NCBI GenBank assembly: GCA_965217865.1
Contig: CBDCJO010000002.1
Location: 3,232,001-3,296,000, forward strand
Reading direction: 5' to 3'
Length of the DNA: 64,000 bases
From: Candidatus Latescibacterota bacterium
GTDB taxonomy: Bacteria > Latescibacterota > UBA2968 > SICM01
Under the pieces are notes generated by a model, which was not told where the DNA came from, searched no databases, and worked only from the letters and a program-made list of their open reading frames with translations. Position numbers and translations under genes: made by a program. Positions 1-19,909 of the stretch are shown piece after piece (within the stretch, counting starts at the first letter, position 1; each line of letters opens with the position of its first letter).

Positions 1-293
1 GATGTTGACCAGCACGTCCTCGACCTGAGGCCGGCCGGGTTGCTCAATTCGTCGGCGTCGGGCAATGCGGACGCTGCTGTCAGCAATACCGACAGCGATC
101 ACGACGGGGGCGTGGAGATCGTGAAGCAATCCAGTGCGACAATCATATAGGCGCTACGGGCGGCTTTGACGCAGCAATGCTTGCACACGGTGCCATACTC
201 GGCGACAACAGGGGAGCAGGGACCGGCACCGCGGCGGACGTTGTGGGGATCATGAGCGCCGCGCATATGGGTCCGCCCGAAGGGGACAGGCGA

Positions 294-3200
294 ATGAGCA
301 ACGGCTTTCAGAGAACGTTGAACCACATACGATCCATCGCCGATTCCGAAGCCCACAAGGGGCGCCTCTTCGAAAGGCTGATGAAAACGTACTTTGTGGA
401 GGACCCTCTCTACAAGGAACGTTTCTCCCACGTCTGGCTGTGGTCTGAATGGGCGGTCCTGCAGTCCGGTTTCGATGGCGCCGATACCGGTATCGATCTC
501 GTCGCCGAGGAGCGCGAAGGCGGTTACTGCGCCATTCAGTGCAAGTGCTACGCACCGGGCACGCAGATTTCGAAGCCTTACCTCGATTCGTTCATCGCCG
601 CCTCGGCCCGCGGTCCCTTCACCGCCCGCATCATGGTCGACACCGGCGATGAGTGGGGGCCGAACGCGGTCAAGACCATCGCTCCGCTGAAGCCCGCATG
701 CGCCGTGCTTCGCTTCGGCGATCTCGCAAGCCGACCGTTCGACTGGCCCGATCTGGTCCACGGCGAACCGGAAGCGCTGACGTATCGGCGCGAACTGTTC
801 AGCCTGCGCGCGCATCAGAAGACCGCACTCGACGACGTGACTGGAGGCTTCAAGACGCGTGATCGCGGCAAGTTGGTCATGGCTTGTGGCACGGGCAAGA
901 CCTTTGCAGCGCTACGCATCGCGGAAGCCGTTGCGGGTATCGGAGGCCGGGTGCTCTATCTGGTGCCGTCGATATCGCTGTTCCAGCAGTCGATGCGCGA
1001 ATGGGCGACGCAACGGGCGATCCCGCATCGCTACATCGGGATCTGCTCCGATACCCGTGCCGGTCGCAACGACGAGGACGCGTCGCTTCAGGAACTCGAG
1101 ATCCCAGTCACTACGGACCCGTCGATGATTTCCCGGGCGTTGCGGTTATCGCGCCCGGACGCGATAACCGTGGTCTTTTGCACCTATCACTCGCTCGGCA
1201 TCGTGGAGCGCGCGCAAGACGACGGAGCACCGGCGTTCGATATTGTTCTTTGCGACGAGGCCCACAGGACGACGGGCATCGAGCGTCCCGGCGATCCGAC
1301 CTCGCCCTTCGTGCTGGTTCACGACGCCCAAAGAATTCGGGCCGCGAAGCGCCTCTACATGACCGCCACGCCGCGTCTCTACACGGAAGGCGCGAAAGCG
1401 AAGGCGGCAAGCCATGAGACGGAAGTATTCTCCATGGACGATCCGGTGACCTATGGGCCGGAGTTTCACCGCCTTGCCTTCTCCCGGGCCGTCGAGCAGG
1501 ACCTGTTGTCCGACTACAAGGTGGTGGTTCTCGCCCTATCCGAGCAGCATGTCGACGCCGCGTTGCAGGCGCATCTGGCTTCGGGCGACAGCAAGATTAA
1601 CATCAGCGACGCGGCGAAGATCGTCGGTTGCTGGCGCGCGTTGCAGAACCCGGAGAACAAGCGCCCCGGCGATGGACCGATTTCCCATCTCACCCGTGCG
1701 ATCGCGTTCACCAACACCATTAAATTCTCGAAGCGCTTGGTGGCTCATTGGGACAACATCGTCGGGCAAGCCATCGAACAGCTGCCCGAGGCGGCGCGGC
1801 CCGGTGCCTTCCGCTGCGAGACGCGCCACGTCGATGGACAGGACCACGCGCTCGAACGCAAGCGCCGTATCGAATGGCTCAAGGGCGATTCCGGGGGAAC
1901 GTGCCGCATTCTCTCGAACGCCCGGTGTCTTTCCGAGGGCATCGACGTGCCCGCGCTGGACGCCGTGCTCTTCATGGACTCCCGAAAATCCCAGGTCGAC
2001 ATCGTGCAGGCCGTGGGCCGCGCCATGCGCAAGGCTGCGGGCAAGCAGTACGGCTACATCGTGCTTCCGGTCGCCGTTCCGGCGGGCGTCGATCCGGACA
2101 AAGCCCTCGACGACAACGAGCGGTTCGCCGTTGTCTGGGGCGTCTTGCGCGCACTGCGCTCGCACGATGACCGGTTCGATGCCGAGATCAACAAGATCGA
2201 CCTCAATGACACGCCGACGGATCGGATCATCTTCAGCGGCGACGGGATCGACGGACGGGGTGACGGTTCCAGCCCTCTCGAACTGCCCTTTCCGCCGCTG
2301 GATCTGCCGCCCGGAGCGATCTTCGCCAAGGTCGTCGAGAAATGCGGGGACCGGAAGTACTGGGAAACCTGGGCCAAGGATGTGGCCGACATCTTCTCGC
2401 GGCTCGTCCACCGGATCGAGAATCTTCTGGCCAGTTCCGATAACGAAACCCTGCGTGAATGGTTCGATGCCTTCCACGAGGAACTCAAGGTCTCGATCAA
2501 CGAGTCGATTACCCGCGACAACGCCATCGAAATGATGGCCCAGCACATCCTGACGCGGCCAGTCTTCGAGGCGCTGTTCGAGCATTACGATTTCGCCGCC
2601 GGAAACCCGGTGGCGCGGGCGCTGGACGCCTTGCGACAGGATTTCGGGGAGTTCGGGCTGGAGAACGAGACGCGGGATCTGGAGCGCTTCTACGAGAGCG
2701 TGCGCATGCGCGCTCTCGGCCTCGACAACAGCGAAGCGCGCCAGCACGTGCTGATGGAACTCTACGAGAAGTTCTTCGCCACGGCCCTCAAGAGGGACGC
2801 GGACCGCCTCGGCATCGTCTACACGCCGGTCGAGATCGTGGATTTCATCCTGAACAGCGCCGATCGCGTGGTGCGCCGGGAGTTCGGTCGAAGCCTGAGC
2901 GACGAGGACGTTCATGTCCTCGACCCGTTCACCGGCACCGGCATCTTTCTCGTCCGGCTGATCCAGTCCGCGCTAGTCCGGGAGTCCGATCTCGGGAGGA
3001 AATACCATGGAGAGTTTCACGCCAACGAGATCGTGCTGCTGGCCTACTACATCGCGGCCATTCACATCGAAGAAGCATTCCACGGGCGGCGCGGCCCCGA
3101 GAGCGCCTATGAGCCTTTCAAGGGCATCGTACTGACCGATACGTTCAATCTGCACACCGACAGGACCGGATTCCCGAAGAATTGGCTTCCGGTCAACAGC

Positions 3201-5066
3201 GCACGGGCGGAACGCCAGCAGGATCTACCGATCCAGGTCATCGTCGGTAATCCACCATGGTCGGCAGGGCAGAGGAGCTCGGCGGACGACAACCCCAACG
3301 TCGACTATCCCGAGCTTGAGAAGCGCATCGCAAAAACCTATGCGGCGCGCTCGAAGTCGACAAACAAGAACAGTCTCTATGACACCTACAAGATGGCAAT
3401 CCGCTGGGCGTCGGACCGGATCGACAAACAAGGCGTGATCGCACTCGTCACCAACGGCTCCTGGATCGACGGCAACGTGGACTCCGGCGTTCGCGCCTGC
3501 CTGGCCGAGGAGTTCAGTTCGATCTATGTTCTGAACCTGCGGGGCAATCAGCGGACTCAGGGAGAACGCTCGCGCCAGGAGGGCGGCAAGGTATTCGGCC
3601 AAGGCTCCCGTGCGCCGGTCGCGATCACGATCCTGGTCCGGAACCCGGAAGCCGTTCATGACGGCTGCCGCATCCTCTACCGCGATATTGGCGACTATCT
3701 CAGACGTGAGGAGAAGCTGGCGGTCCTGCGCGAGGCGGGGTCGATCGCTGGCATCGAGGATTGGCGAACGATCACGCCCGACCGGCATCACGACTGGATC
3801 GGCCAGCGAAGCGAGGAATTCCAAAAGCTCTATCCGGTGGGTTCAAAGACCGCGAAGGCCGGGAAGGTGGACGAGGCGATCTTCAAGCTGTTCAGCAACG
3901 GCTACTACACCGGAAGAGACGCCTACATCTACAACTTCTCCCGCAATGCTTGCGCCGAAAACGCCCGCAGAATGGTGGATGACTATCTCGGAGCCCTGCG
4001 GGAGTTGAGCAAATTCAAGAATGGATCACCCTCGGACGAGGTCATTCACGAGATCACAAGCCGCCACTCCGCAAACATTCGATGGGATCAGACACTCAAA
4101 AACAGACTGCCGGCGGGCAACCAAGCGGCCTTTGACGGAAAAAATATTCACAAAACCGTGTACCGTCCATTCATCGCCATAAACTGTTATGCCGATCAGG
4201 TCTTTGCAAAACGACCTGGTCCGAGTAGCTGGATGTTTCTTACGGGAAACCGGCAACAAAACCGTGCGATCTGCGTTCCGGGAATCGGATCGACCAAGCC
4301 GTTCTCGGCTCTCGTGGTCGACAAGATGCCGGATCTTGAACTGATATCGAAGGGCCAGTGTTTCCCTCGCTACCGGTATCGGGAGCGGGCGGAGGTGCAG
4401 CGTGAGCTTCCGGGGATCGAATCGGGCCGGGAGCGCATCGACAACATCTCAGACACGGTCTTGCGCGCCTTCCGCGTGCGTTACAACGACAACACGATCA
4501 CCAAGGACGCGATCTTCGATTACGTCTACGGCGTTCTGCATGCGTCTGCCTACCGGGAACGCTTCGCCAACGATCTGGCGAAGGAACTGCCGCGCACTCC
4601 GCTCGCGCCCGATTTCCATGCCTTTGCGAGAGCCGGGCATGAACTTGCGGAACTTCACCTGGGTTACGAGACCTGCGAGGAGTATTCGCTGGACGTTACG
4701 TTCACACAGCCCGGAGAACCGCGACCGGAGCAGTTCCGTATCGGTGAGCGGGCGATGCGATTTGGCGACGACGAAAGGGCGGTCCTCCACGTCAACGAGT
4801 ACATAAGGTTGGGCAACATTCCGGCGGCCGCACACCAGTATCAGGTCAACGGGCGGACGCCGCTGGAGTGGTTTATCGACCGCTACAAAATAACGCGGGA
4901 CAAGGAAAGCGGCATCGTCAACGATCCCAACGCCTGGTTCGAGGACCCACGGGATCTGGTCGTGGCGATCCGCCGCATCGTATATGTCAGCTTGGAGACG
5001 GCCCGCATCGTCGAGGGCTTGCCGGAGCCGTTCGATCCTGCGGAACGTCTGCAAGGAACCATATGA
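294..5066 (+). CDS. Type ISP restriction-modification enzyme (Mrr-type nuclease, SF2 helicase, N6-adenine MTase, TRD; LlaGI/LlaBIII family)
   Basis: DTGIDL...AIQCK nuclease motif, GTGKT, DEAH, TAT, QAVGRAMR helicase motifs, DPFTGTG and GNPPW MTase motifs; ATG at 294 preferred over TTG 177. Confidence 0.92.
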   Translation: MSNGFQRTLNHIRSIADSEAHKGRLFERLMKTYFVEDPLYKERFSHVWLWSEWAVLQSGFDGADTGIDLVAEEREGGYCAIQCKCYAPGTQISKPYLDSFIAASARGPFTARIMVDTGDEWGPNAVKTIAPLKPACAVLRFGDLASRPFDWPDLVHGEPEALTYRRELFSLRAHQKTALDDVTGGFKTRDRGKLVMACGTGKTFAALRIAEAVAGIGGRVLYLVPSISLFQQSMREWATQRAIPHRYIGICSDTRAGRNDEDASLQELEIPVTTDPSMISRALRLSRPDAITVVFCTYHSLGIVERAQDDGAPAFDIVLCDEAHRTTGIERPGDPTSPFVLVHDAQRIRAAKRLYMTATPRLYTEGAKAKAASHETEVFSMDDPVTYGPEFHRLAFSRAVEQDLLSDYKVVVLALSEQHVDAALQAHLASGDSKINISDAAKIVGCWRALQNPENKRPGDGPISHLTRAIAFTNTIKFSKRLVAHWDNIVGQAIEQLPEAARPGAFRCETRHVDGQDHALERKRRIEWLKGDSGGTCRILSNARCLSEGIDVPALDAVLFMDSRKSQVDIVQAVGRAMRKAAGKQYGYIVLPVAVPAGVDPDKALDDNERFAVVWGVLRALRSHDDRFDAEINKIDLNDTPTDRIIFSGDGIDGRGDGSSPLELPFPPLDLPPGAIFAKVVEKCGDRKYWETWAKDVADIFSRLVHRIENLLASSDNETLREWFDAFHEELKVSINESITRDNAIEMMAQHILTRPVFEALFEHYDFAAGNPVARALDALRQDFGEFGLENETRDLERFYESVRMRALGLDNSEARQHVLMELYEKFFATALKRDADRLGIVYTPVEIVDFILNSADRVVRREFGRSLSDEDVHVLDPFTGTGIFLVRLIQSALVRESDLGRKYHGEFHANEIVLLAYYIAAIHIEEAFHGRRGPESAYEPFKGIVLTDTFNLHTDRTGFPKNWLPVNSARAERQQDLPIQVIVGNPPWSAGQRSSADDNPNVDYPELEKRIAKTYAARSKSTNKNSLYDTYKMAIRWASDRIDKQGVIALVTNGSWIDGNVDSGVRACLAEEFSSIYVLNLRGNQRTQGERSRQEGGKVFGQGSRAPVAITILVRNPEAVHDGCRILYRDIGDYLRREEKLAVLREAGSIAGIEDWRTITPDRHHDWIGQRSEEFQKLYPVGSKTAKAGKVDEAIFKLFSNGYYTGRDAYIYNFSRNACAENARRMVDDYLGALRELSKFKNGSPSDEVIHEITSRHSANIRWDQTLKNRLPAGNQAAFDGKNIHKTVYRPFIAINCYADQVFAKRPGPSSWMFLTGNRQQNRAICVPGIGSTKPFSALVVDKMPDLELISKGQCFPRYRYRERAEVQRELPGIESGRERIDNISDTVLRAFRVRYNDNTITKDAIFDYVYGVLHASAYRERFANDLAKELPRTPLAPDFHAFARAGHELAELHLGYETCEEYSLDVTFTQPGEPRPEQFRIGERAMRFGDDERAVLHVNEYIRLGNIPAAAHQYQVNGRTPLEWFIDRYKITRDKESGIVNDPNAWFEDPRDLVVAIRRIVYVSLETARIVEGLPEPFDPAERLQGTI

Positions 5067-5209: not shown

Positions 5210-5483
5210 GTGATTGACGTAATTTCCAAACCCGCTGATCAAATTGGCTTGAGTGACATTGAGGCATTAATCACTTCACAAGTCCCGGAAGGCGAGCAGA
5301 TTGAATTCAAGGAGAGCTTGTCCGAAAAAGGTAAATCTTCCGATCCCTGGATGGAAGGTAAGGTTCGAATTGGTGACCGAGCGAGAAACAAGGTGCTTGA
5401 GGAGGCCGTTGCCTTCGCAAATTCTCATGGTGGCGCTCTGCTGATTGGTATCAAGGAGTCCGGTACGAAACCTCCTGTTGCTA
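5210..5483 (+). pseudogene. Schlafen/AlbA_2-domain protein, truncated
   Basis: EGEQIEFKE and AFANSHGGALLIGI motifs, then abrupt switch to unrelated sequence. Confidence 0.8.
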
Positions 5484-5560
5484 CCATCGCCGCGCGTTCC
5501 TCCCACGCCTCATCGCTGTTCTTTACGCTGGAACCGCTCTTGGGGGGTGTCACGGCTTGA
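5484..5560 (-). pseudogene. Short fragment of a primase-tail-like gene
   Basis: Reads DEAWEERAAM, resembling AFDERAGIMEHEGG at ~31640-31680. Confidence 0.4.
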
Positions 5561-5576
5561 AGATTCTGCTTTTGAC

Positions 5577-6551
5577 ATGATTCAAATCCACCGAAGATTT
5601 GTTCTGCAGCTTGAAGGATTTGTCATGGTTGCGGCAGGTCTGTCCTCCGCAGTGATGGCGCCGCTTGAATTCTCTCTCTTCAAGGATATCACGAAGGACC
5701 TTGTCGGATTCGGCTACCTTGGCTTTGCGGCGCATTCAGGCCAGATTTTTGGCTTTTATCTAGTTGCCCTTGTGCTTCTTCCACTTGGGTACGGTCATCT
5801 TCTTCTAAGATCCTGGGCACACAAGCTCAGCTTAACGGCCCTGTGGTCGTGGCTCATATTAGGTATTCCATGTATGGCATTCGTGATGTACATCTTTGTC
5901 GCTTACAAGAATCCCACAGATCTCACCACGCTATTTTTTGGTGTATCTACTCTATTCATTTATCCGGTTCTGCCTTTTGCCCTCGTTCTGTTCTATCGTA
6001 GTTCAGATACGCAAGCACAGTTTCATAGCAAAGACCATCTCACTTGGATTGAGACAGCGCCACAGCCGGTGCTAATCCTTGGCTCAGTCGTGACCTTTTA
6101 TGTCTTTGCTTTTCACTTACCCCTATTTCTGAACGGGGTTGTTCCGTTTGGATGTGTCTTTCTGTCAGGCCTCGGAGGCTACACGCTCGCAGCTACAGCA
6201 ATTCTGGGATTATCATTCGTTGCGTTGGGATTGTTCAATCAACGCCGTTGGGCATGGTTCGGTGGGATGGCATGTTTTACTACGATGGCAATGGACTTCC
6301 CCCTCGCGTTCTTGTGTTCTGGTTCGACAGAATTCCTCCGGCAACTTGGGGTATCGGATTTGGACGTGTCTTTGGTCGAGCTACAATTTCCAAGTGCACA
6401 GATCGCACTATTTCTAGCACTTCCAACAGTGAGCGCTCTGTTCACCTTATTGTTTAACCGTCGATATTTTGATCGGGTTGCGACAAAGGCGGAGCTTTGG
6501 ATGGGTCTGCTGGCCGTGGTGATTCTGATTCGCCTTTGGTCTAAAGTCTGA
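5577..6551 (+). CDS. Multi-pass membrane protein, integron cassette (5' end probably lost)
   Basis: Many hydrophobic segments; attC R'' box 16 bp after stop. Confidence 0.6.
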   Translation: MIQIHRRFVLQLEGFVMVAAGLSSAVMAPLEFSLFKDITKDLVGFGYLGFAAHSGQIFGFYLVALVLLPLGYGHLLLRSWAHKLSLTALWSWLILGIPCMAFVMYIFVAYKNPTDLTTLFFGVSTLFIYPVLPFALVLFYRSSDTQAQFHSKDHLTWIETAPQPVLILGSVVTFYVFAFHLPLFLNGVVPFGCVFLSGLGGYTLAATAILGLSFVALGLFNQRRWAWFGGMACFTTMAMDFPLAFLCSGSTEFLRQLGVSDLDVSLVELQFPSAQIALFLALPTVSALFTLLFNRRYFDRVATKAELWMGLLAVVILIRLWSKV

Positions 6552-6817
6552 TTTTAAGGATACTGTATATAACACCGAGTGCCCGCCTCCGCTTCGCTCC
6601 GGAGGAACCTGCTGCGCAGGTTCGGGCACTCTTGAACTACATGCGGAAAGTCAAGAGCAAAGTTGACGATTTCGAGGTTGGATGAGATTTTTTATGCCGG
6701 TTTTCTCAGCGTCAAGGGGTGTAAAGTGGACATTCTTACTATGTTCGGAGCGCAGTTCGCCCTTATGGTGCAGGACCGGTCTTTGAAGAGGGGCGAAGCT
6801 CCCGTGTGGGGGGTGGT

Positions 6818-6985
6818 GTCTTCCGATACCAACTTACATCCGCGGCCGGCACTCTTGTTTGTGTGAGTAGGTGTGCCGGTCTTCGCGCATTTTCTAATCC
6901 GATCCAGGAAGACGGGGAGGCCTGCGGATCTGTTAGCCGAAGCGACTCCTATCGGAGCCCTCCTCTCAAGCCAGTTCTGCAGGCC
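6818..6985 (-). ncRNA. Candidate bridge RNA of IS110 element A
   Basis: Two stem-closed internal loops (6919-6985, 6818-6913) containing short matches to target and donor junctions. Confidence 0.55.
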
Positions 6986-7095
6986 GCCCCTGGCCGCCTT
7001 GGAAGGCGGCAGCTTGTGTAACCGGTCCGGCAGGAGACTGCACCGGATGTGAATCGAGCAGCGATGTCAAAGAGCGAGTGTGACCGCGGCAGCGG

Positions 7096-8427
7096 TCAGG
7101 CGGCGGCGCGAGCGCGCCGTCGGGGATGCTGCTTTTTCTTGTAGCGCTTCATGTAGCGCCTCTCGAGCGTTTTGAGGGATGCCGCGGGGTGGTCTCTCTC
7201 CTCGTAGAGACGATTTTCTCTGAGCAGGGCTACGATGAGCCGTAGGAGCTGGGACGAGGCGGCCACGATATTCTTGCGGTAGCACTTCTTCCTGAGCTCG
7301 CGTTCGAGGAAGCGGCGGCGGACCTGGGGCACGACCCGGGCGGTCTGTTCGGTCATCTGGTAGATGATTCGCCGCAGCCGGGGATTGCCGATCTTGCTCA
7401 TCCGCCTTTTGCCTTTGTACTTTCCGGAGTCGGCGATGCGCACGTTCGTGCCGGCGAGCTTCTCGATCTGTTTGAAGTGGGTGAAGCGGGTGGCCCCTCG
7501 CGTCTCCGCGGTAAATTGGGCAGCCAGGTTTTTGTTGATGTTGGGGATCGAGTCGACGATTTGGAAAGTCGGATCCTGCTGAGTGCGGGCGATCATCGCC
7601 TGCTCCACAGCTTTGAGTTGCGTCTCGGTCCGCCGGAGCGCCTCGATCCAGCCATTCAGGATGATGCGGAGGACATCTTCCTGGCCCTCGACCGGGATCC
7701 CGATGGAGGTCCGGGCCTCCTCCTTCAGCTTCTGCAGCGTCGCCACCCCGTAACTGCCTCTTGAGATCCGATGGATCTGGCGGCCCTCCTCTTCGATGTC
7801 AATTTCCTCGAAGTGGCGGGGCAAGAAATATCGCTCCAACAGGTAGCGGGAGGTCTTCGTACGAATGTTGACCGCGTGGAGGAACTCCGGGAAGACGCGT
7901 TCCATCAGAGACCGGGTGCGGAGCAGGGACTTTGTGAGGTCCTTCCGGAGCTTGTCGTAGGCGATTGAGAGCTGGTGCGCGGCCTCCATGTGAGGCTCGA
8001 ACGTCCTGAAGAGATCATAGCTTCCCTTCTGTGCGCTGTCGGCCACCAGAAAGGCATCCCTGGGATCCGACTTGGAGAAATCGCGGTGCATCATCGGTCT
8101 TGCGTGATACGTCGTGAGGGGGCTCACCAGCAGCACGCGATACCCCTTCCCCTGGAGGTAGTGGGCCAGGGTAACCCACAGATTGCAGGACGTCTCGATG
8201 GCCACCACCATCCGATCCGGCCCGCAATCTTTGATGCGTCGCTCCAGATGCTGCCAGAGGGTATGGTCATATCCCGCTCGCGTCACGGGGAATGAGAAGG
8301 CCCCGCCTTGCTGAAGTCCGGAGGGATCGAGCACCGACCCGCTGTGTTTTTCCTTGCCCGGATCGATCCCGAGGACGAAATTCTGGGAGATGGCCTGTCG
8401 TTTAAGGTGGAAGATTTTCGACTTCAT
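7096..8427 (-). CDS. IS110-family DEDD recombinase
   Basis: GID, IETS, KSDPRDA, DSGK, GNPRLR motifs all present. Confidence 0.95.
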   Translation of the reverse strand: MKSKIFHLKRQAISQNFVLGIDPGKEKHSGSVLDPSGLQQGGAFSFPVTRAGYDHTLWQHLERRIKDCGPDRMVVAIETSCNLWVTLAHYLQGKGYRVLLVSPLTTYHARPMMHRDFSKSDPRDAFLVADSAQKGSYDLFRTFEPHMEAAHQLSIAYDKLRKDLTKSLLRTRSLMERVFPEFLHAVNIRTKTSRYLLERYFLPRHFEEIDIEEEGRQIHRISRGSYGVATLQKLKEEARTSIGIPVEGQEDVLRIILNGWIEALRRTETQLKAVEQAMIARTQQDPTFQIVDSIPNINKNLAAQFTAETRGATRFTHFKQIEKLAGTNVRIADSGKYKGKRRMSKIGNPRLRRIIYQMTEQTARVVPQVRRRFLERELRKKCYRKNIVAASSQLLRLIVALLRENRLYEERDHPAASLKTLERRYMKRYKKKQHPRRRARAAA

Positions 8428-8597
8428 CGTATACCTCCAGCGTTGAGGGTTGAGTTTGCTTGCGCTTGCCGAATCTTAAGACACCTTGCCTTGCAAGGGA
8501 AGATTCAGCCCCTCAACGCTGTTTTTTCCTCCTTTACTCAATATAGAAATCGTTATCCGGCATAGGGGTTCGAAGGGGAAATGATTTCGTTGTTGTA

Positions 8598-9002
8598 GTG
8601 GGCAAACATCCAGTATCGGAGCAACAGATGGATCCGAGGGTGGTCAGACATTACGAGACGGTCAAAGACGAGGCCACTCGCCTAGCCCAGGGAACTTGCC
8701 GAGTGGAGTTCGAAAGGACGAAAGAGGTTCTGCTGAGATACTTGCCGGGCCCTCCGGCTCAAATTCTCGACATCGGAGGTGGGCCAGGTGCTTATTCATT
8801 CTGGCTGGCGGAAAAATCGTACAAAGTCCATCTGATTGACATTGTGCCCCTCCACGTGGAGCAGGCCAAGAGCAGGGAAGGTGGGGCACTTCTTGCCAGC
8901 ATCGGCCAGGGAGACGCAAGTAGACTCGACTTCGAGTCTGACTCGATGGATGTGGTGCTGCTGCTCGGTCCACATCTTCTGACGATGGCCAAGAAGAAGT
9001 GA
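8598..9002 (+). pseudogene. Class I SAM methyltransferase cassette with large in-frame internal deletion
   Basis: LDIGGGPG motif; LLLGP joined directly to C-terminal HLLTMAKKK; cassette ends complementary (TAGGGGTTCG / CGAACCCCTA). Confidence 0.75.
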
Positions 9003-9071
9003 AGACTGGTGCTGCCTGGCTGCCCGCGTCTGACTAGACTGGAGACCCCGAACCCCTACGTCCGCCTAACA

Positions 9072-10703
9072 CATATTAAAGGCCCCGGGTCAAGAAAAAA
9101 AGACTCCTCCATCACGATTTTCACCGTTTTTTTGCGACCCTAACGTTCGGGGCGTGCAATGAGCCGATCCGAAGAGGTTTGGCGATGTTCGGATCTTTGT
9201 CAGTCGTCGGTCTGACTTGATTTTCACAAACCGGGCTAGATGTGAGCCATCTGCACCAAACACGTATCGGGAATCAAGCGCCTCTCACGGTATACTGTGG
9301 AGCGCCCTGGGAGAGGCATTGTCCTCTCCCTCCAGAAAATAATCGGTACCCCTTGAGTCCCAATCAAGAAGGATGGCTGTTCTCCCCTTTTATGAGGGGG
9401 AACGCCAGTTAGGTTCGGGTTCATCGCGGGGGCAGACGGACTGACTGTCTCAGATCCGCTCATCTATGTTCTAAATAAGGGGTGAAGGCGGCTTCCCAAT
9501 CAAGCCGATGAGCTGGGCTATTGTCCGGACGTTGCCCTGCCAGTTAGGCGCCGGGTTAACCGCCCCACCCATTATGCTACAAACCGTTTCTCGTCGAATG
9601 CCTGGCCGTTTTTGAGCATTTGGTAGGCGGCCACGCCGAATTTGTGAGCGATGACGCTCTTGGCTTTTCCCGGACCTTGTTTGCTTTTGAGCTTCTCGTA
9701 GTATCTATTGATCGGTTCTGACCATCGCTGGGCGACGAGGATGATTTCTGAGAAGGCCCACTTTAGGTGTGGGTTGCCGATTTTGTTATTCCCGTCCTTT
9801 GTCTTCTTTCCAGCGGACTCTCTCTCGACTTTGATCAGCCGGCTGTAGGAGGAGAAGGCTGAAGCGGATTTGAACCGTTCAATCGTGTGGATTTCATACA
9901 GGATGGTCATGGCCAACATCTCCCCAAGTCCGGGAACCGTCATCAGGATAGACAGGACATTGCGATCGTGATGTTTGGCCTGTGCCAAGACTTGCTTCTC
10001 GACTTTGTAGATCATTTTGTCCAGGGAGTCAACCAGGTCCAGATCGCAGTCCACAGACATACTCAGATCTGGGTCGGCCAGACGTTCGCACAGCTTTCTC
10101 CTGTTGCTCTTCTTTTTGACCTGGTCGCTGAGAGGATCCAGGATAGCTTGCTGAGAGAAGGTGTTCTGGATGTGGGTGTAACACTCAGCCCGTAAGGCCA
10201 CAAACCGGTGTCTTCGCCGGAGCAGGTCCCGGGTTGCCCGCATCTCTTGCGGATAGGCATAGGCCATCGGGAACAGGTTGCAGCGCATCAGCTCAGCCAG
10301 CATTCTGGAATCGAGACGGTCGTTCTTTTTCTTGCCCCCATGGATCGCCTTCATATACAGGGCGTGTCCCAGGTAGAATGGAATCCCGGCCTTGTGACAC
10401 CCGTCAGCCAGCCAGTACCAGTTGAAGGTTGACTCCACCCCGACGGCGATGCTACCGAGGTGAGTTTCCAGCACCTGCAGCAGGAGCTTGAAGTCGTTTT
10501 TCAGGTTGCGCTGGAACACAATCTCTCCCATCTTGTCCATGATGCAGACAAACATCGTTCTGGCGTGGAGATCGATGCCACAGAAATAGTTCGAGTCGAT
10601 CCTTGCGTATTGCATAAGGCCCTCCTGTGGGAGAAAGGTGATTGAGATATCCGGATCTCAATTATAACCTCTCCTGACAACGAGGGCCTTTATATTAATA
10701 TCA
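9072..10703 (-). mobile_element. IS110/IS1111-type element B with sub-terminal IRs and 500 bp 3' non-coding end
   Basis: TAAAGGCCC / GGGCCTTTA sub-terminal IRs; CA core at both junctions. Confidence 0.88.
9572..10615 (-). CDS. IS110/IS1111-family DEDD recombinase
   Basis: GIDLH, VEST, KNDRLDS, ESAG, GNPHLK motifs. Confidence 0.95.
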   Translation of the reverse strand: MQYARIDSNYFCGIDLHARTMFVCIMDKMGEIVFQRNLKNDFKLLLQVLETHLGSIAVGVESTFNWYWLADGCHKAGIPFYLGHALYMKAIHGGKKKNDRLDSRMLAELMRCNLFPMAYAYPQEMRATRDLLRRRHRFVALRAECYTHIQNTFSQQAILDPLSDQVKKKSNRRKLCERLADPDLSMSVDCDLDLVDSLDKMIYKVEKQVLAQAKHHDRNVLSILMTVPGLGEMLAMTILYEIHTIERFKSASAFSSYSRLIKVERESAGKKTKDGNNKIGNPHLKWAFSEIILVAQRWSEPINRYYEKLKSKQGPGKAKSVIAHKFGVAAYQMLKNGQAFDEKRFVA

Positions 10704-10779
10704 CGCCGCTTGCGGCTCGTGCCTGCGGCACTCGACAAAACCCACTCCGTGGGTTCGCAAGCGGCAAACGTTATACGAC

Positions 10780-11531
10780 ATGAAAGAACAGAGATACAAG
10801 GGTGTTTTCTTTGACCTCTATGGAACGCTTCTCGTCTATGGCGACATGGAAAGAGCCTGGGAGGAGTGGTTGGACTCTATACTCGCTTCCATGCGCAAGA
10901 ATGGCGCGGAGATTGAAAGAGATTCTCTGAGAGAGATCTGCAGTGGTTTTTTCAACAAACCAGAACCTCCGCGTGAGAGCAACCACACAATCTATGAGCG
11001 ACGCATTGGCGCTCTCGGTGAGCAGCTTGGGATTACTCTGGAGGGGTCTGAAAAGACTGCGATTTCGGATCATAGTGTGCACTCTTGGACAAAGTACACC
11101 ACCGTCGACCCCGAGGCGACGCGGCTACTTGGCGAAGTTCATGGCTCGATGCGTACCGCACTGATATCCAATTTCATCATCCGTCTCACGTGCGATCTCG
11201 ACTTCAGGAATCGGGGTTCGAGCGGTATTTCGACGTTGTGGTGATATCAGGTGAGGTTGGGATCAAGAAGCCCAGTCCGGAAATCTTCTCAATTGCGATT
11301 GCGGAGACCGGATTGCAGCCGAGTGAGGTCGCGTTCGTCGGTGATTCGATCGACGACGACATGATGGGGGCAGCCGCAGCTGGTCTCACGCCGATCCTGA
11401 TCGACAGGCACGATGGTAAGCGGAGGGTTGCGTCCGACTACGGTGCGGATCATGACTCGAAACCTCGTGGGCCAGACCCCATGATGGTAATTGCGTCACT
11501 GGGAGGCCTACGAGAGATTTTGTTCGATTAG
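10780..11531 (+). pseudogene. HAD hydrolase cassette, frameshifted near 11177
   Basis: FDLYGTL in one frame, KPSPEIF and VGDS in the other; one added G restores SNFDHP. Confidence 0.85.
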
Positions 11532-11540
11532 CTTCACGTC

Positions 11541-11660
11541 GTATAACACGCCCGTGCCCGGCTTCGGGCGTTCGCCCTCCGCGCAACCTGCTTCCACCTT
11601 CGCGGCTAACGCCGCTTCGGTGGACAAGTCGCAGGTTCGTGGTTGCCGAGAACGTTACCC
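11541..11660 (+). other. attC site 3
   Basis: GTATAAC...GTTACCC; GTCGTATAAC is complementary to cassette start GTTATACGAC. Confidence 0.88.
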
Positions 11661-11751
11661 GCAATGCAGATTTTGAGACTATTGGGAAACAAATGGGGGC
11701 AAAATACAGCCTTCCAACCACCCACTCCGTATTTATCATAGCAGTTGTCCC

Positions 11752-12282
11752 GTGATTATGCATAAACAGAAACTTAACTACGGAATTCGTCTCGCTGACA
11801 CAGCTGACCTGCCGTTCCTGCAAGAGATGCTTTATGAAGCAGCTTACTGGAGAACGGATCGAGAGCGTCCTCCAATTCATAAAGGATTAGCACGTCCAGA
11901 CATTCAAAAAGTTCTTCACAATTGGGGTCGCCCTGGAGATACAGCAGTAATTGCCGTCGATGGAAACGATATGCCGTTGGGTGCTGCTTGGTACCGGTTT
12001 TGGACGTCAGAGTATCATTCCTTTGGTTTTGTGGATGAATCGACCCCCGAGGTTGGAATTGGCGTGCGAGTAGAGAAAAGAAGGCAAGGAGTGGGAACGG
12101 CCCTTTTACAAGCTCTGCTCAAGCAGGCTGCTAAACAAAGGATACAACGTGTAAGTCTCAGTGTCGACCCGGATAATTACGCCCGTAAAATTTATGAGAA
12201 GATTGGCTTTAAGAAAGTAGATGTCCCTGACAATTCTTGGACGATGGTGGTGGATCTGGCGTCAGAAAAGAAAAAGACATAG
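11752..12282 (+). CDS. GNAT acetyltransferase cassette
   Basis: RRQGVGTALL motif, YEKIGF; bounded by attC sites. Confidence 0.9.
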   Translation: MIMHKQKLNYGIRLADTADLPFLQEMLYEAAYWRTDRERPPIHKGLARPDIQKVLHNWGRPGDTAVIAVDGNDMPLGAAWYRFWTSEYHSFGFVDESTPEVGIGVRVEKRRQGVGTALLQALLKQAAKQRIQRVSLSVDPDNYARKIYEKIGFKKVDVPDNSWTMVVDLASEKKKT

Positions 12283-12331
12283 AGGCCTGTCTGCCCATTT
12301 ATGGTTTTCCTGTTGTCAAAATCTGCCAAGC

Positions 12332-12412
12332 GGGTAGCATGTGGCTCACGGCTCCGCTGCGTTGCAGCTTCGGAGGATAAGACGCGGGTTCGTGAGCCAC
12401 TGAAGGTTATGA
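12332..12412 (+). other. attC site 4, degenerate shortened copy of attC5
   Basis: R'' mutated to GGGTAGC; 32 bp missing between CCGCTGCG repeats; R' GTTATGA. Confidence 0.85.
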
Positions 12413-12443
12413 GAAATGCGATTAAAAGCAGGAGATTGATCAT

Positions 12444-13181
12444 TTGACCACTTGGCCAGCAGAGATGCCTACCGTCGAATGCAAGGTCCTTGGTGAGACG
12501 TTCAGCATCGAGTGTGTGGAGATGTATGGCGGGTGTCTTCCCGAGGTTGGTCATACATCCACTCGGGCTACATACACATACCCCCACGCGAAACAGGTCT
12601 CACTGAGTCGCTGTGAGGTGATTTGTGAGCTTAAGCATAGCGACATGGCAGTCTATGAGATTGCTGAGTCATCACCAGGTTCACAGGACCTTCCAGATCT
12701 GTGGTATGAAGGACAATCAAACGAAGGTGTCTTCGGTCTGTTTCTGTTCAAACGCAGCAAGCACGAGATTGGCTATTTCGAGCAGTATTCGGGGCAAGGG
12801 GAGCCTGATACGCCACTAATGCTTACGCCTGGGTTTCACCGTGAATACGAATGGACTGAGAACGTGCAGGGTGTAAAGGAACCATGGCTTGTGGTCAATG
12901 ACATTTCCGGTGCAGTTAGGCTGCGACTGGGTGAGAAGGAGTTTAAATGCTTGGTCTTTGAAGAAATGATTCTCACTACACAACGACAGCCGGTCCACTT
13001 CAATGTCTCATACCTGAACACTAGTGGTAGGCGTGTCCTCATTCGTCGATGGGAGGGAGCCAAAGGAGCCAAACAGGGACTCCTTCAGGGATGTGATACC
13101 AAGACTTTCAAGGGATATACCTGGCGGCAGCATTACGACGTTGTCGGCGACGTGTTCCTGAATGGTGACGACACGGGCTGA
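12444..13181 (+). CDS. Hypothetical protein cassette
   Basis: 245 aa ORF filling the attC4-attC5 interval with GGAG RBS; no motif recognised. Confidence 0.75.
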   Translation: MTTWPAEMPTVECKVLGETFSIECVEMYGGCLPEVGHTSTRATYTYPHAKQVSLSRCEVICELKHSDMAVYEIAESSPGSQDLPDLWYEGQSNEGVFGLFLFKRSKHEIGYFEQYSGQGEPDTPLMLTPGFHREYEWTENVQGVKEPWLVVNDISGAVRLRLGEKEFKCLVFEEMILTTQRQPVHFNVSYLNTSGRRVLIRRWEGAKGAKQGLLQGCDTKTFKGYTWRQHYDVVGDVFLNGDDTG

Positions 13182-13210
13182 GTCATAGGCAGAGCGAGAC
13201 GTCGCACTTC

Positions 13211-13323
13211 TCATAACATGTGGCTCACGGCTCCGCTGCGCTCCGCACCAACCCGCTTCCTCCCCCGCTGCGTTGCAGCTTCGGAGGATAAGACGCGGGT
13301 TCGTGAGCCACTGAACGTTATGT
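13211..13323 (+). other. attC site 5
   Basis: TCATAAC, GTGGCTCACG/CGTGAGCCAC stem, GTTATGT. Confidence 0.9.
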
Positions 13324-13403
13324 GTAATGCCAGCCCTGGTGAAGCATACATCGAACTATGAAAGATGATCCAGTCTCAGTGTGAATTGATCCGGAGGAGG
13401 TAG

Positions 13404-14423
13404 GTGGAACTCGACGAAGATCGTTTGAGGGCTATTCTTAGCGACACGCATTCATTCTATGGGTCAAAGCCTGCACAGTACCGAACCGATGAATGGGTTA
13501 GTCCGAATGCACGTGACCTGATAGTCGCCCAGTTTCGATCAGATTCGCGGGTTCTTGACATTGGGTGTGGAAATGGGGTCACACTTCTTGAGAACTGGGG
13601 AGCCTTTCGAACGGGCGTTGGGCTAGACAACGACGTTGTCGCAGGCAGAAAATTATCCAGAGACTTCGGGATGGATTCGAGAAGTAGTATTGTTCTAAAC
13701 GAAACGGCGATAAAAAGGTTGGGGTTTGAGTCACCGGCTGATGCTATCAATGAACCGTTTGAAGGATTTTATGATTCCGGATATGATGAGTTTAAGGGAG
13801 GGAAGATCGTGGGTGTGGTGAAAGATTTTCATTTCAAATCGATGCACTCCAGGATTGAACCTCTCGTTATCCACATCTGGCCCTGGCTTAATTACCTTCT
13901 GGTGAGAATTAACCCTGAAGAGATCTCAGGGACATTGGCCTTTCTGGAACGCAAATATGAAGAGCTCGATTCAAACCATCCATTCGAATTCTCCTTCCTG
14001 GACAATCGTTTTGACAAAATGTATCGGTCTGAAGAAAACCTCACGCATATCTTCGGTTCGTTTTCTATGCTGGCCATTCTCATAGCATCTCTCGGCTTGC
14101 TTGGTCTGGCGTCTTTGACCCTTGGCCAGCGGACCAAGGAAATTGGTATTAGAAAAGTCCTTGGAGCTTCAATTGCTAACATCGCCTTCCTGATTTCAAA
14201 GGATTTCTTAAAGCTGGTGCTCATTGCCAACTGTTTCGCGTGGCCGGTTGCATATTATGCAACGACTCATTGGCTGAGGAATTTTGCATATCGGATCGAT
14301 ATTGGACCGGCGGTTTTTGTGTTGGGCGGTATTATGGCATTCGTAGTCGCTCTAATATCGATCAGTGTTCAGACTCAAAGGGCAGCGTTCACCAATCCTG
14401 TAAATGCGCTGCGTTATGAATGA
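13404..14423 (+). pseudogene. Chimeric ORF: methyltransferase N-terminus fused in frame to MacB/FtsX-type ABC permease C-terminus
   Basis: VLDIGCGNG, junction ~13636, then RTKEIGIRKVLGAS and NPVNALRYE. Confidence 0.85.
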
Positions 14424-14424
14424 A

Positions 14425-14812
14425 CGTGGTGGTCTGAGAAGGATGAAGTGAAACAGTATGAGCGCCGGATTGCTGAGTTGGAGCGTATGCTGGGCCAGAA
14501 GGAGGTTGAACTGGCTCTGGCGAAAAATTGTTTGGACGGTCGCTGACGGTGGATGAGAAGGTGGATCTGGTAAAGAAAAATCGCTGTCGATTTGGTCTGA
14601 ACAGGTGCTTGATAGCTCTGGGGCTGTCGAAAGGCACCTGGCACCACCGCCAACGCCGAAGGGATGCCACAGGCAAGGATATGGCACTGAGGCGGCGGAT
14701 CACATCAATCATCAAGAGGAATCCTGGTTACGGACATCGACCGATCCTGGCCGAGTTAAACGAAGGAGGTAAAAACCGGGTTAACCACAAGCGTTTGCTG
14801 CGCGTTCTGGCT
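14425..14812 (+). mobile_element. IS3-family fragment
   Basis: orfA end (IAELERMLGQKEVE) and orfB start (PGYGHR, VNHKRL). Confidence 0.7.
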
Positions 14813-14907
14813 GACACGGCCACTTCTGCAACCCCTGACCGTTAAATGCAATCGTGGTCCCAGATACGATATGACAAAACTCTGGCGAAGTACGATTCGA
14901 ATAAAAA

Positions 14908-15390
14908 ATGAGACACCTTCCAGCCATAGCATACCTGATCAAGCACAAGTTCCGGGTGTTCGTTCACTCGGTATTGATGGGTGTCCCTTTGCGGGGGATC
15001 CTGCATGACTACAGCAAGATTTCCCCCACAGAGCACTTTGGGATTGGCCGTCACTTCTATCCCAGCAACCCATCTGAGAAAGAGCGCCACAGGGATCTAT
15101 TCAAGAAAGCGAAAGCCCACCACATTGCAGGGAATGATCACGAACTGCCCTATTGGTATAGAGAAGACGGTAGTTGCAGTGAGATTCCTGAATCAGCTAG
15201 AAGGGAGACAGTCTGTGACTGGGCCGCATTCCAGGGTCTTGCCTTCTCTCTGAAAGGAGTTAGAGAGAAGGCGAGGATGTCCTATACCCATTGGGCGAAG
15301 AACTACAGGATGCACCCCAGCACTAGACAGTGGTTTGAGCACTTCCTGGAGCTTCAGGGGAAAAAGGAAGGGGACCACGACAGCATTTAA
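14908..15390 (+). CDS. DUF5662-like (HD-related) protein cassette
   Basis: LHDYSK, HH...NDH, E..CDW; starts after GTTAAAT (14841), ends at ATTTAAC (15385). Confidence 0.7.
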   Translation: MRHLPAIAYLIKHKFRVFVHSVLMGVPLRGILHDYSKISPTEHFGIGRHFYPSNPSEKERHRDLFKKAKAHHIAGNDHELPYWYREDGSCSEIPESARRETVCDWAAFQGLAFSLKGVREKARMSYTHWAKNYRMHPSTRQWFEHFLELQGKKEGDHDSI

Positions 15391-15417
15391 CACAGCACTC
15401 CCGAGCTTCGGCCCTAG
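15385..15417 (+). other. attC site 6, truncated by IS insertion
   Basis: ATTTAAC overlapping the stop codon, IS end at 15418 after CTAG. Confidence 0.7.
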
Positions 15418-15892
15418 CAGCCTGTTGAAAAAGTGCGTTTATGCCAAGATGACTGTTGTCTTTCCTTGTGGTTTGGTCCTATGATATATCAGGTTCAAAC
15501 TGAGAAGGGAGGACGAGCAAATGGCAATGGGAAAACGAGGACGACAGAGACAGGAAAACCTGTTCATCGCATCGAACACTTTGGTGAAATCTCCGGGTCA
15601 TCCGTTCTACGAGAAGCTGAATCAGGTATTGGGGGCGAACGGCTTCGACGAGTTCGTCGAGGGGCTTTGCCAGCGGTATTACGCTCCTCATATGGGTCGC
15701 AAGGGCATTCCGCCCGGGGTTTATTTTCGGATGCTTTTGATTGGGTATTTCGAGGGACTTGATTCGGAACGTGGGATCGAATGGCGTGTATCTGACTCGC
15801 TGACGTTGCGCCGGTTTTTGGGGTATGCCCTTGACGAACAGACCCCGGATCATTCCAGCCTGTCTCGCATCCGGCATCGGCTTCCCTTGGAA
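15418..15892 (+). mobile_element. IS1182/IS5-like element, 5' fragment
   Basis: Matches the 5' end of the full copies; IR CAGCCTGTTGAAAAAGT. Confidence 0.9.
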
Positions 15893-16945
15893 TTAACTGA
15901 GTTTGCGGACGTGTTTTAGCCGGGGTGGACGGACTTGTCCCTGTGATGTTACGACGACAGGTGCTGACATGGCAGTCAGGCCGGTTTGAGCCATCTGATT
16001 CTGTTCCAGGCCGGGAAGAAGTCAGTCATCCACCGGTTGTAGCCCAAGACACGATAGATGATCTGTCTTCCCCGGGTCACGATCTGGCAAGGGATCCAGA
16101 TCAGATTCTGGAGGAAGGCGCGAAACTCCATTCTCAGAAGTTGATCGCGACGCTCACGCTTTCGGATCATCAACGCGAACCAGGCTTTGAGGTTCCACGC
16201 CAGGGCGGTCATGACCATGTAAGCCCAGTTGCTCATCAGGTTGTCGACGGGCATCCGCATGGCGTTGACCCCGTTCTTGAGTTGTTCAATCACGTTTTCC
16301 TGATCGCACCGTCGATTGGCCAGCCTCACGATTTCCGCGGCCGCAAGATCTTTTCGGGTGGTAATGTAGAAGAAATAGCGCTTGTCATCGAACAGGGCGT
16401 TTTCGCCGCGTTCGACGCTCAGGTTCTTTTCGAGGATCACGAGTCGACAGGTCTTCTTGCATCGAGCAGGACGATACGAAACCCCGGCAACACGTTCACT
16501 GGCAAGCCGGATGTTTTTGAAGCCGCGCTCCCGGATGATCCGGGCTTTCACGTTCTCGCGTTTCTGTCTCTGGGAGGTCTTGACCTGGTATTTGGGTTGT
16601 CGTTCAAAGGGCTCCCAATCGCTCTGTGACAGGGATTTGGCGATCTTGACCAATCCCCGGTAAGCATCCATGCCGAAGACGAAGTCGACCTTTTCCGACC
16701 AACGATCGAAGTGCCGGGTGAGTGAGAAGCCGGTGTCTCCGCGCAGGCAGATGCGTTTGGCGAAAGGGGCGACCAGCGCGATGGCGCGATCGATCCACTT
16801 TACGGCACCGTCGTGGCTGGGCACATGGCCGGGTCGATTCACAAGAAACAACACCTCCCTGGTGTTCGCCAGAGAGACCACGAGAGGATGGTATCCCCAG
16901 ATACCGTTGTATGACAGGGCCATGCCCTGCTTGCGTCGCAACCGA
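15893..16945 (-). mobile_element. IS1380-family transposase, C-terminal half
   Basis: SYNGIWGYHPL, LRGD, RCDQENVIEQLK motifs. Confidence 0.85.
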
Positions 16946-17469
16946 TTGGGTGTCTGTGTAAGATCGCTTAGCTCGATCAAACGCTTCGAACGGAAGTTCG
17001 GCACGGGCTATTGCCGCCACGTCATCTAGGGACGCAACTGAAATAGCTTCACAAATCCGCACGACTGCCTCAGTATGCATATGGGAATTATAAACTTGCC
17101 GGTCAGAAGATTTAGTCCTCTTACCGCTGACCTGCCTGAATTCTTCGGACTTTTTCATGGAGAATGGCTCCTTCAGGTACCTCTGTTGATCGGCTGATGA
17201 ACTCCTTCGGAGTCAGATTTCCCCAGACTTGAATGGGGCCGAACCTCGTTGTAGCACCGACGCCTCTTCTTCATCTCATCTCCCTCCGTCCGCCCGCCTG
17301 ATCTTTGCGCTGATTCCGTCGAAGTTGGTCAAGAACTGGACCCCTCAGCTTCGTTGCCCGTCAAATGCCCACTGTGCATCCTTAGTGGCTCGGACCTTGA
17401 CTGGATCATTCCGCTTTCCCGTCCCAGGGTTGTTCATGTGCCCCCCACATCTACCCGTAATTCCCCCGA

Positions 17470-17730
17470 CACTAGCTTGGGCAGGAGCGCGTCGCGCAGG
17501 GCGGTGAGGGCGCGGGATTCTGCAATGTTTGACCTCCCATGGGCCGAGCGCATGAATCGAACGCTTCAACGATGTTAGGGTTTGGCTCAATCACCCGCAA
17601 GGTTTCAAACTGGCTCTTGTTGACAGCACCGAACACTGTCCCTGTATGCTCGTATTCTTGGAGTACCGACTGAATCGTCCAAGTGGAATAGTAGCTGAAT
17701 GACATCGTATCTGATTTGTGCCTCAGCGCC
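17470..17730 (-). pseudogene. Type I RM specificity subunit fragment
   Basis: GTVFGAVNKSQFETL...P, HsdS-like C-terminal pattern. Confidence 0.65.
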
Positions 17731-17822
17731 CCTAATCAGCTACGGGACTGACAGGGACTTTCCCCTCTCTCAATATCTCTTCCGAGTAACCAATCCCCGG
17801 GGGCATTTTCTCGTCCTCATAT

Positions 17823-18278
17823 TCAGGTGAATATGTCAGTAAGCTCACTTAGTGAATGGATGATGAAATTCGGTTGGCCTGTTTTCTCATCTGGCATTAC
17901 ATTGGCGAATTTGCCATTTTGATACCAAACTGTCGTTGCCCCCGCTTGATTTCCCCATGCGATCCCTCTGATAACATAGTCATCCACAACAGCAACTTCA
18001 TGGGCTTTGAGATTAAATTCCTGAAGAAAATTATTGTATTCTTGCGATTTCTTATCAACATCGTTGGTAAATCGAATGACGTCGAAACATCTTAGGATTC
18101 CATTTATTTTCAACACATCAATCCGCTCGGCCTCATTCTCTTTGGTTGAATAAGATACAATGCTAAGCTTATATTTCCTTGAAAGCTGCTTAACTACAAA
18201 CACCGCATCGGGAAATAATTGATCTGTTTCTCTGTCATACAAAGTCCGGCCATAATCAAAGATGATCATTCTAATCAT
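17823..18278 (-). CDS. HAD-family hydrolase (cassette-like)
   Basis: IIFDYGRTL, VVDD; follows attC on minus strand. Confidence 0.8.
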   Translation of the reverse strand: MIRMIIFDYGRTLYDRETDQLFPDAVFVVKQLSRKYKLSIVSYSTKENEAERIDVLKINGILRCFDVIRFTNDVDKKSQEYNNFLQEFNLKAHEVAVVDDYVIRGIAWGNQAGATTVWYQNGKFANVMPDEKTGQPNFIIHSLSELTDIFT

Positions 18279-18318
18279 ACAATAATCTAAAGAACCTTCG
18301 TGTTTGCTTGCCCATTAC

Positions 18319-18430: not shown

Positions 18431-18470
18431 TGATGAGGGACTGCTTGGGGTGGTTTTCCTTCTTACCGAA

Positions 18471-19586: not shown

Positions 19587-19649
19587 GAGCATTATCACGC
19601 TGATTCTCGCGGGAGCTCCGAAGATGTCTCGCTGGCTGCGCCACAACGT

Positions 19650-19883: not shown

Positions 19884-19909
19884 TTACAGTTACAATATTG
19901 GCGTGAGGA

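Follow-up and report, generated by a model that had tools for sequence, protein, structure and literature searches.

How does a mobile element without long repeats at its ends come to lie, in a fixed orientation, at the crossover box of an integron attC site? The question is raised by a 64,000-nucleotide (nt) stretch of DNA from a Candidatus Latescibacterota bacterium (assembly GCA_965217865.1, contig CBDCJO010000002.1, positions 3,232,001 to 3,296,000; the whole stretch is called the window here), whose positions 6638-8551 hold, on the minus strand, an intact IS110-family element of 1914 bp that is antisense to its cassette array and inserted between the C and the GTTAT of an attC R' box. The evidence makes it likely that this is one member of a clade lying antisense in attC, one base before the R' GTT, and that it would reach that position as a bridge recombinase, directed by a two-loop RNA and probably recombining at a single-base core.

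In silico excision of 6638-8551 leaves ...CTCTTGAAC-GTTATCC. The element boundary is not arbitrary because an empty attC twin, 97% identical (G000:C2:4314621-4314692), has the same joint and reads CTCTTGAAC-GTTA, which bears out the claim of an earlier first-pass annotation that the insertion abuts the R' crossover. Positions 6637 and 8551 share a C, and the element ends are therefore ambiguous by one base. An attC site comprises an R'' box (RYYYAAC) and an R' box (GTTRRRY) around an imperfect hairpin, following an open reading frame (ORF) within an array; in the window, R'' and R' flank an imperfect hairpin in an array, and the R' sequence, GTTATCC, departs from the consensus once. The element and its target comprise the following features.

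6567-6573, plus strand: attC R'' box (ATATAAC) of the upstream cassette, from sequence and an nhmmer attC model match.
6574-6637, plus strand: attC hairpin body (L'' to L', and spacer), from the fold of the reconstructed empty site and the empty twin at G000:C2:4314621.
6637, plus strand: shared C of the likely core, last base of the hairpin body segment.
6638-6642, minus strand: right-end terminal 5-mer, the donor half read by the predicted right donor guide (guide-identical in 43/43 non-redundant loci).
6649-6654, minus strand: -35 box TTGACT of a promoter predicted at the circle junction, where joining the ends brings it to 17 nt from the -10 box.
7096-8427, minus strand: recombinase ORF, 443 amino acids (aa), with PF01548 and PF02371; NF033542 above cut-off.
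8428-8551, minus strand: left end, from sequence, with the -10 box TATATT at 8540-8545 and terminal GATTTCT.
8552-8558, plus strand: attC R' box (GTTATCC), start of the next cassette, from sequence; ORF 8598-9002 follows.

The same genome yields 17 blastn matches to the element, 8 of at least 1630 nt and 9 partial, with identical ends; across these copies and in relatives, insertion is site- and orientation-specific without a longer target duplication. The non-coding ends are 124 nt on the left and 458 nt on the right, the right end being the RNA side, downstream of the gene. A long sub-terminal inverted repeat is absent from the window element, which has only AT/AT at the 7+3 positions, and none of 37 complete elements has an inverted-repeat run longer than a few bases. 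Joining the window's two ends creates TTGACT-17-TATATT, a predicted circle-junction promoter; in relatives, the search patterns for this promoter themselves required TTG, TAT and the spacing. Contigs from four DNA sequencing runs contain the element with varied flanks, together with an empty allele of this attC family. One copy (G000:C2:3759594-3761495) is 12 nt short and joined at another C straight to GTTAGG; the same joint occurs in run X1, and it may be an alternative donor C.

The recombinase combines an N-terminal DEDD RuvC domain (PF01548) with a C-terminal domain carrying a conserved Ser (PF02371). Residues D22-E78-D121-D124 and S334 are intact and, apart from the neighbours of D22, belong to the invariant columns of a 46-protein alignment. 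Its predicted structure (mean predicted local distance difference test 90) best matches ISCro4 and IS621, with E ~1e-12, about 20% identity and, for this predicted model, template-modelling scores of 0.75-0.78 by target length; a sequence search returns the same two best matches. The nearest named transposase found is ISBth13-like, at 25.6% identity.

A word search found 170 relatives, and 135 loci were retrieved; among metagenome matches, 80 of 271 were kept. Record titles assign the relatives to Nitrospirota, Bacteroidota, Ignavibacteriota, Calditrichota, Marinimicrobia, Rhodothermota and others, though bins may be mis-assigned. Clade proteins are 430-457 aa long, and a profile search gives about 18 clusters with E <1e-110, a thin tail, and then the bulk of IS110 proteins at ~1e-65. 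A FastTree tree of 79 proteins, which held no ISKpn4-group proteins, places 61 element proteins and two unplaced ones on one branch with support 100, leaving ISBth13 outside; the first-pass annotation's 443-aa IS110 lineage without inverted repeats is supported. Plasmid and phage collections contain no clade member (best matches 28% and 26%), and among 167 other genomes of the window's phylum only one has a member (G151, with stops). Overall, the clade is widespread and apparently undescribed: a literature search whose reach excluded subscription papers and bioRxiv supplements returned nothing that describes an attC clade on the R' side or a core of one base, six clade motifs are absent from the curated transposase file of PMC11187229 (a positive control worked), and four are absent from the searched parts of the PMC11208160 supplements.

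Several members show further peculiarities. One sub-branch of 21 loci (L007, L009, L011, L032, L066, L104, L108, L113, L122, L124 and others) carries, in the stretch from the left end to the start codon, an extra multi-stem RNA-like element of ~125 nt that is highly conserved, possibly pseudoknotted and without an Rfam match. At L131:3259-3333 (minus strand), a group II intron domain V/VI match just below the Rfam cut-off lies ~80 nt beyond the right end. Relatives P0045 and P0046 encode 578 and 697 aa, possibly through N-terminal extensions or mis-called starts.

The clade's insertion sites repeat the arrangement in the window. Sorting the 135 loci by left-end motif gave 10 without upstream DNA, 22 without the motif, 1 with two and 102 with one; in the 99 loci with one unambiguous motif and a flank, that flank is TAAC in 84 and TAAT in 4. 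The base after the right end is G in 46 of the 48 loci where the pattern did not demand it. An arm-pairing test finds an attC-like hairpin at 23/32 non-redundant loci including the window (22/31 relatives), compared with 6/300 genomic and 55/524 local control TAACG sites; an earlier, stricter test gave 30/59 loci versus 19/150 controls. The next ORF is antisense to the recombinase at 19/29 loci and sense at 1/29, antisense being expected at R'. At L017 the array is headed by an integrase above the TIGR02249 cut-off, and 2 of the 5 host genomes checked have an integrase above cut-off. Four loci (L021, L025, L118 and L014) have the flank TAAT rather than TAAC, three of them with the matching guide change; the hairpins of L118 and L014 failed the attC test, and some TAAT members may be retargeted.

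What would carry the element to this site is predicted from its 3' end. The downstream non-coding region is 359-618 nt long in nearly all parsed loci, and the window's 458-nt 3' end folds with a z-score of -2.29, none of 100 shuffles being as stable. The anchored RNA region was taken from 91 loci, 67 after near-duplicate removal, and its structure was counted on 45. Across these 45 relatives, a 37-pair structure is 86.8% paired, compared with 71.7% in shuffled and 40-54% in slid alignments; it exceeds all 500 shuffles and all slid controls, and 35 of the 37 pairs show two-sided changes. The donor arm was placed by hand, helix 4 is only 67% paired, and RNAalifold alone recovers the target arm only. 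Around the RNA, a long-range stem is weak (7.6 versus 6.8 nt), with both motifs in 13/44 loci. Rfam contains no family matching the window, and none matching the RNA in 14 loci, where only a piece of a group II intron in the flank and, by chance, a microRNA were matched. The predicted parts are as follows, all on the minus strand.

6785-6995 (ends approximate), minus strand: predicted bridge RNA with closing stems, target-binding loop and donor-binding loop, from fold and conservation.
6818-6913, minus strand: donor-binding arm, closed by 6818-6824/6907-6913; helices 5-7 of the counted structure.
6831-6834, minus strand: in the donor loop, a spare base (6834), the G that would pair with the core (6833) and a handshake UU (6832-6831), from covariation.
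6835-6839, minus strand: right donor guide AUGUA, from covariation and tree changes.
6888-6896, minus strand: left donor guide U-AGA-(bulge 6892)-AAU-G (47/49, versus 23/49 unbulged).
6919-6985, minus strand: target-binding arm, closed by 6919-6925/6979-6985, with inner stem 6938-6963; conserved fold.
6928-6931, minus strand: in the target loop, a spare base (6931), a G that would pair with the core, and a handshake AU, in agreement with left-end GAT (GAT in 59/64 parsed loci).
6932-6936, minus strand: right target guide CUAAC, complementary to R' GTTAG, from covariation.
6970-6974, minus strand: position of the left target guide (CUGGC), from family-wide covariation at guide positions 7-11; weak within the own genome.

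The first-pass annotation had proposed, from the window, a target loop followed by a donor loop, closed by the stems 6919-6925/6979-6985 and 6818-6824/6907-6913, and four guides: CUAAC (6932-36) and GAAC (6974-77) for the target, AUGUA (6835-39) and UAGAAA (6891-96) for the donor. Both stems are complementary on the minus strand, all four motifs are present there, and the order of the loops recurs in the conserved, covarying fold. Covariation across homologs, the check that it had proposed, was found with two of the four registers revised: CUAAC and AUGUA stand as the right guides, and the UAGAAA register and GAAC do not. In particular, the right donor guide equals the right-end 5-mer in 43/43 non-redundant loci, where 23.5 are expected from shuffled pairings, with five variants. 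The unbulged UAGAAA register matches in 23/49 loci (24.4 expected), whereas the register AGA-x-NAU matches the variable left-end base in 47/49 (20.8 expected). The last base of the right target guide agrees with the target in 47/48 (43.3 expected), with 2 independent C-to-U guide changes on the tree.

The left target guide behaves differently from a guide of fixed register, for which no single register emerged. Allowed to float, the 5' strand of the target loop shares a run of at least 5 nt with the target's left side in 25/40 cognate pairs, against 7.7 expected; such runs are centred 7-11 nt ahead of the inner stem, with shifts of -3 to +3, and mostly read TTAGC-like L'-box sequence. This floating register was picked after inspection of the data and tested against shuffled pairs and two controls; the controls (reverse-complement guide, right flank, spare base) are flat. 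In the window the covarying guide falls at 6970-6974 (CUGGC) rather than at GAAC, and neighbouring CUUGA (6966-6970) matches 6631-6635 of the site. On the tree, joint changes for three guides number 9 (7 and 7), 7 (7 and 7) and 3 (2 and 3), the 7 belonging to the right donor guide, whose guide and DNA each change 7 times. In the first two of these the joint count stays close to the single counts, unlike in the earlier annotation's register, which gives 13.

After each right guide come a spare base, a G and two further bases, which would act as a handshake. Donor-loop handshake base 1 matches target position -2 in 26/41 loci (10.4 expected) and base 2 in 21/41 (11.4 expected); the target-loop handshake is AU in 59/64, matching the left end. 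The candidate RNA has four guides that covary with target and donor, and handshake guides that match the non-cognate DNA, as a bridge RNA does. The AC before the insertion, which GAAC had been taken to read, is better explained by the donor-loop handshake bases.

Do these guides suffice to find attC? Within the own genome, all 11 copies with an attC-side junction have AC before it, and GTTA comes after the full left-end junction in 10 of 11 cases, GGAA in the remaining one; two of the ten share a duplicated flank. The window's predicted UU handshake would account for the AC before all 11 sites, and A at -2 occurs in 11/11 occupied sites versus 37/51 empty attC. Nine of the 11 sites are attC-like, 5 by the nhmmer model and 4 by eye, one of the latter with a degenerate R''; with the 23 of 32 loci noted above, this upholds the proposed homing to the R' side. 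The attC model, built by iterated nhmmer, has 65 matches in the genome and 0 in reversed sequence, and 56 matches have a parsable R' (51 empty and 5 occupied). A home-made attC scanner was dropped, as it called 45 sites versus 78 in the reversed-sequence control. Eight of the 51 empty attC end in ATC-GTTA (e.g. C2:927149, 2880896, 4315664 and 4179156), resembling the element's left-end junction; they could be natural variants or footprints.

It is possible, if on balance doubtful, that duplex bridge-RNA guidance is enough, with RAC-GTTA and a loose left guide setting the site, and that attC is enriched because copies survive outside genes and hop locally within arrays, the hairpin itself going unrecognized. 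The genome has 402 empty RAC-GTTAD sites, most in ORFs and 31 of them attC, one copy lies within a reading frame, at CAC-GTTAT, another at a non-attC site, and the left guide matches L'-box sequence family-wide. However, when ORF sites are excluded, 72-131 non-attC motif sites compete with 31 attC, and 9/10 insertions outside ORFs are in attC (P 6e-4 to 2e-5; counted as 8/10, P 5e-3 to 2e-4). Nor does the left-guide score favour attC in this genome: it is 4.1 for occupied sites, 3.8 for empty attC (p 0.22) and 3.8 for non-attC motif sites (p 0.20), and therefore linear guides do not account for the choice of attC here. ISPpu10 is reported to use a target stem-loop as a second determinant (bioRxiv 10.64898/2026.03.19.712850), and by analogy recognition of the attC hairpin is suspected in the window's clade. 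ISPpu10 also has a short, mismatch-tolerant left guide and a stringent right guide; it differs in its repetitive extragenic palindrome (REP) target, its CT core and its RNA in the left end.

The preferred bridge-recombinase reading differs from the characterized IS621 system in the core. In IS621, the right guides pair with positions 10-14, followed by the CT core and then by the handshakes A81/U82 and G166/U167, which pair with the opposite DNA after strand exchange, A81/U82 with donor A6/T7, the core-pairing bases being G80/G165 (PMC11208158). Its core-pairing G and A81/U82 match the G-A-U order in the window's target loop. All characterized IS621-type systems have a dinucleotide core (PMC11208160, PMC11208158) and A, the IS621 base, is the commonest spare base (target loop: A 34, G 15, T 14, C 1), so that a two-base core with a tolerated mismatch, the one-base reading being an artefact of register, deserves weighing. 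This account is improbable. Only a C is common to both junctions in all copies, the five-base right guides directly abut that C in the DNA, the donor-loop spare base covaries with no flank base (12/41 versus 11.9 expected), and past the G it is flank positions 1 and 2, rather than 2 and 3, with which the handshake bases covary. No dinucleotide core is found; a single C is the likely core, and each right guide carries a spare base.

The likenesses to IS621 and ISCro4 (PMC11208160, PMC11208158; PDB 8wt6, 9t56) are otherwise extensive: a DEDD RuvC and a serine domain in the same (here predicted) fold, a target loop followed by a donor loop, left and right guides, a handshake after the core-pairing G, a junction promoter (again predicted here) and no long sub-terminal repeats. 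The differences comprise protein identity (~20%) and length (~326 versus 443 aa), an RNA located upstream in the left end rather than downstream, a REP target rather than attC R', the opposite orientation to the gene in which the window element would read donor and target, and, in the window element, a core likely of one base with a spare base, a bulge in the left donor guide and a floating left target guide. Judged on sequence, the element is an IS110-family member that would work like a bridge recombinase, is not an IS1111-attC element and, by core and RNA position, is not of the IS621 type.

Elements of the IS1111-attC group, reportedly described by Tetu and Holmes in 2008 and by Post and Hall in 2009, are the obvious relatives to consider. 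ISKpn4, ISPst6, ISPa21 and ISPa25 also target attC, lie antisense to cassettes, take a guide RNA from the 3' non-coding region and share the 7+3 end spacing and the order of guides relative to the gene (PMC11187229). ISPa25 shows that guide RNAs can move between transposases. That the window element is a diverged member of this group, or took over its targeting RNA as ISPa25 did, is nevertheless very improbable: ISKpn4, ISPst6 and ISPa25 insert at TTGAA*CGAATTGTTAG-type sites (PMC13604230), near the attC 5' end (PMC3001079), which is the R'' and not the R' end, and IS1111 members have transposases of 330-350 aa and 11-13 bp sub-terminal repeats, some IS110-group elements with a 3' non-coding region being exceptions (PMC11187229), whereas the window clade has 430-457 aa (443 aa here) and no such repeats. 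The nearest named relative, at 26%, is ISBth13-like; elements of that kind belong to a similar size class (395-455 aa, PMC11187229) and differ in a long upstream and short downstream non-coding region and in falling outside the clade. The distinction from IS1111-attC elements drawn by the first-pass annotation therefore stands, and its description of the lineage as independently guided would follow from the distance in sequence and the different site. Group IIC-attC introns are likewise attC parasites in bottom-strand orientation; they are retroelements that insert near the attC 5' end (PMC3001079).

That the protein rather than an RNA finds attC, the loop matches being relics of end duplication or composition, draws on guides of only 3-6 nt and on a recombinase ~110 residues longer than IS621, and is hardly credible given matched guide and DNA changes in several independent branches, left-guide matches that in cognate pairs clearly exceed those in shuffled pairs while the controls stay flat, and loops that are unpaired within a covarying fold.

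Several observations weigh against the bridge-recombinase reading. Two of the 11 own-genome sites (the reading-frame site at CAC-GTTAT and a rearranged one) and 9 of the 32 tested loci do not resemble attC. The right target guide hardly varies, so that its covariation rests on the 2 guide changes, and the handshake match is partial (26/41). Among the output listed, independent-pair tests gave at most five starred pairs, none with p<0.05; there are too few independent pairs for that threshold, and the shuffles therefore overstate significance. Kinship is only partly controlled in the guide covariation, and the ends and guides were parsed by motif patterns, which pre-selects regular members. Contigs of the four DNA runs contain no circle junction or empty-site joint, although contigs cannot show absence. 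RNA contigs over the element are shallow (depth 3-6) and unstranded, and they extend over coding and non-coding parts alike; from one study, they cover parts of the 3' end in 3/4 runs and the gene in 4/4, which is not evidence of a bridge RNA.

If the bridge-recombinase reading holds, the element ends would join in a circle to form a promoter, and the two-loop RNA from the 3' end would pair donor and target around the likely single-base core. The right donor guide would read the right end and the bulged left donor guide the left end, while the right target guide would read GTTAG of R' and the floating left target guide the L'-box region; the target-loop handshake would then pair with the left-end AT, and the donor-loop handshake with the two bases that precede the core in the target. 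By analogy with IS621 chemistry, the top strand would be cleaved after the core C and exchanged through a serine linkage, presumably with a one-base rather than two-base stagger, and the guide base that pairs the IS621 core T would be left unpaired. The attC hairpin may add the specificity that short guides lack.

The integron integrase cuts between the G and the TT of R'. On this basis the element begins one base within the cassette and separates R' from the hairpin, and its insertion would freeze the cassette until the element leaves. The genome's own integrases are fragments below the TIGR02249 cut-off (C2:1657178-1657988, split; C2:4999306-4999473). From window position 5445 to 20000 and across the genome, cassette arrays lie scattered; they comprise at least 56 attC and are much interrupted by insertion sequences.

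One such insertion lies close by. At 9072-10703 (minus strand; ORF 9572-10615), a second, barely related IS110-family element encodes 347 aa and has ~13-bp sub-terminal repeats, a 3' non-coding region and 11 genome copies with an intact N-terminal domain. Its insertions directly follow the R'' TAAC of attC and apparently duplicate CA, and at G000:C2:1983185-1985344 one attC holds both IS110 elements, one at each end. Further upstream in the window, 177-5066 (plus strand) encodes a 1629-aa type ISP restriction-modification enzyme, after which comes a truncated AlbA_2 ORF (5210-5560).

A bolder proposal, offered tentatively, is that these elements form a phylum-spanning, single-base-core bridge clade with a vestigial unpaired guide position and handshake-set targeting, which reads attC as a folded structure, the right guide on R' and the floating left guide on the L' arm. 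If true, it would provide a natural reversible off-switch at the integrase crossover and a structure-gated, minimal-core tool for genome writing, a use for which bridge recombinases are being engineered and in which the dinucleotide core is a limit. With a likely one-base core, bulges in the guides and natural guide-target pairs already tabulated, the pairing rules become directly testable. For integrons, the finding adds another attC parasite, one of separate derivation that acts at the crossover box itself and is common in environmental phyla. With two IS110 elements at opposite attC ends, the partitioning of attC among guided elements can be studied in one host, and a parasite on the R' side could explain frozen, scattered cassette arrays.

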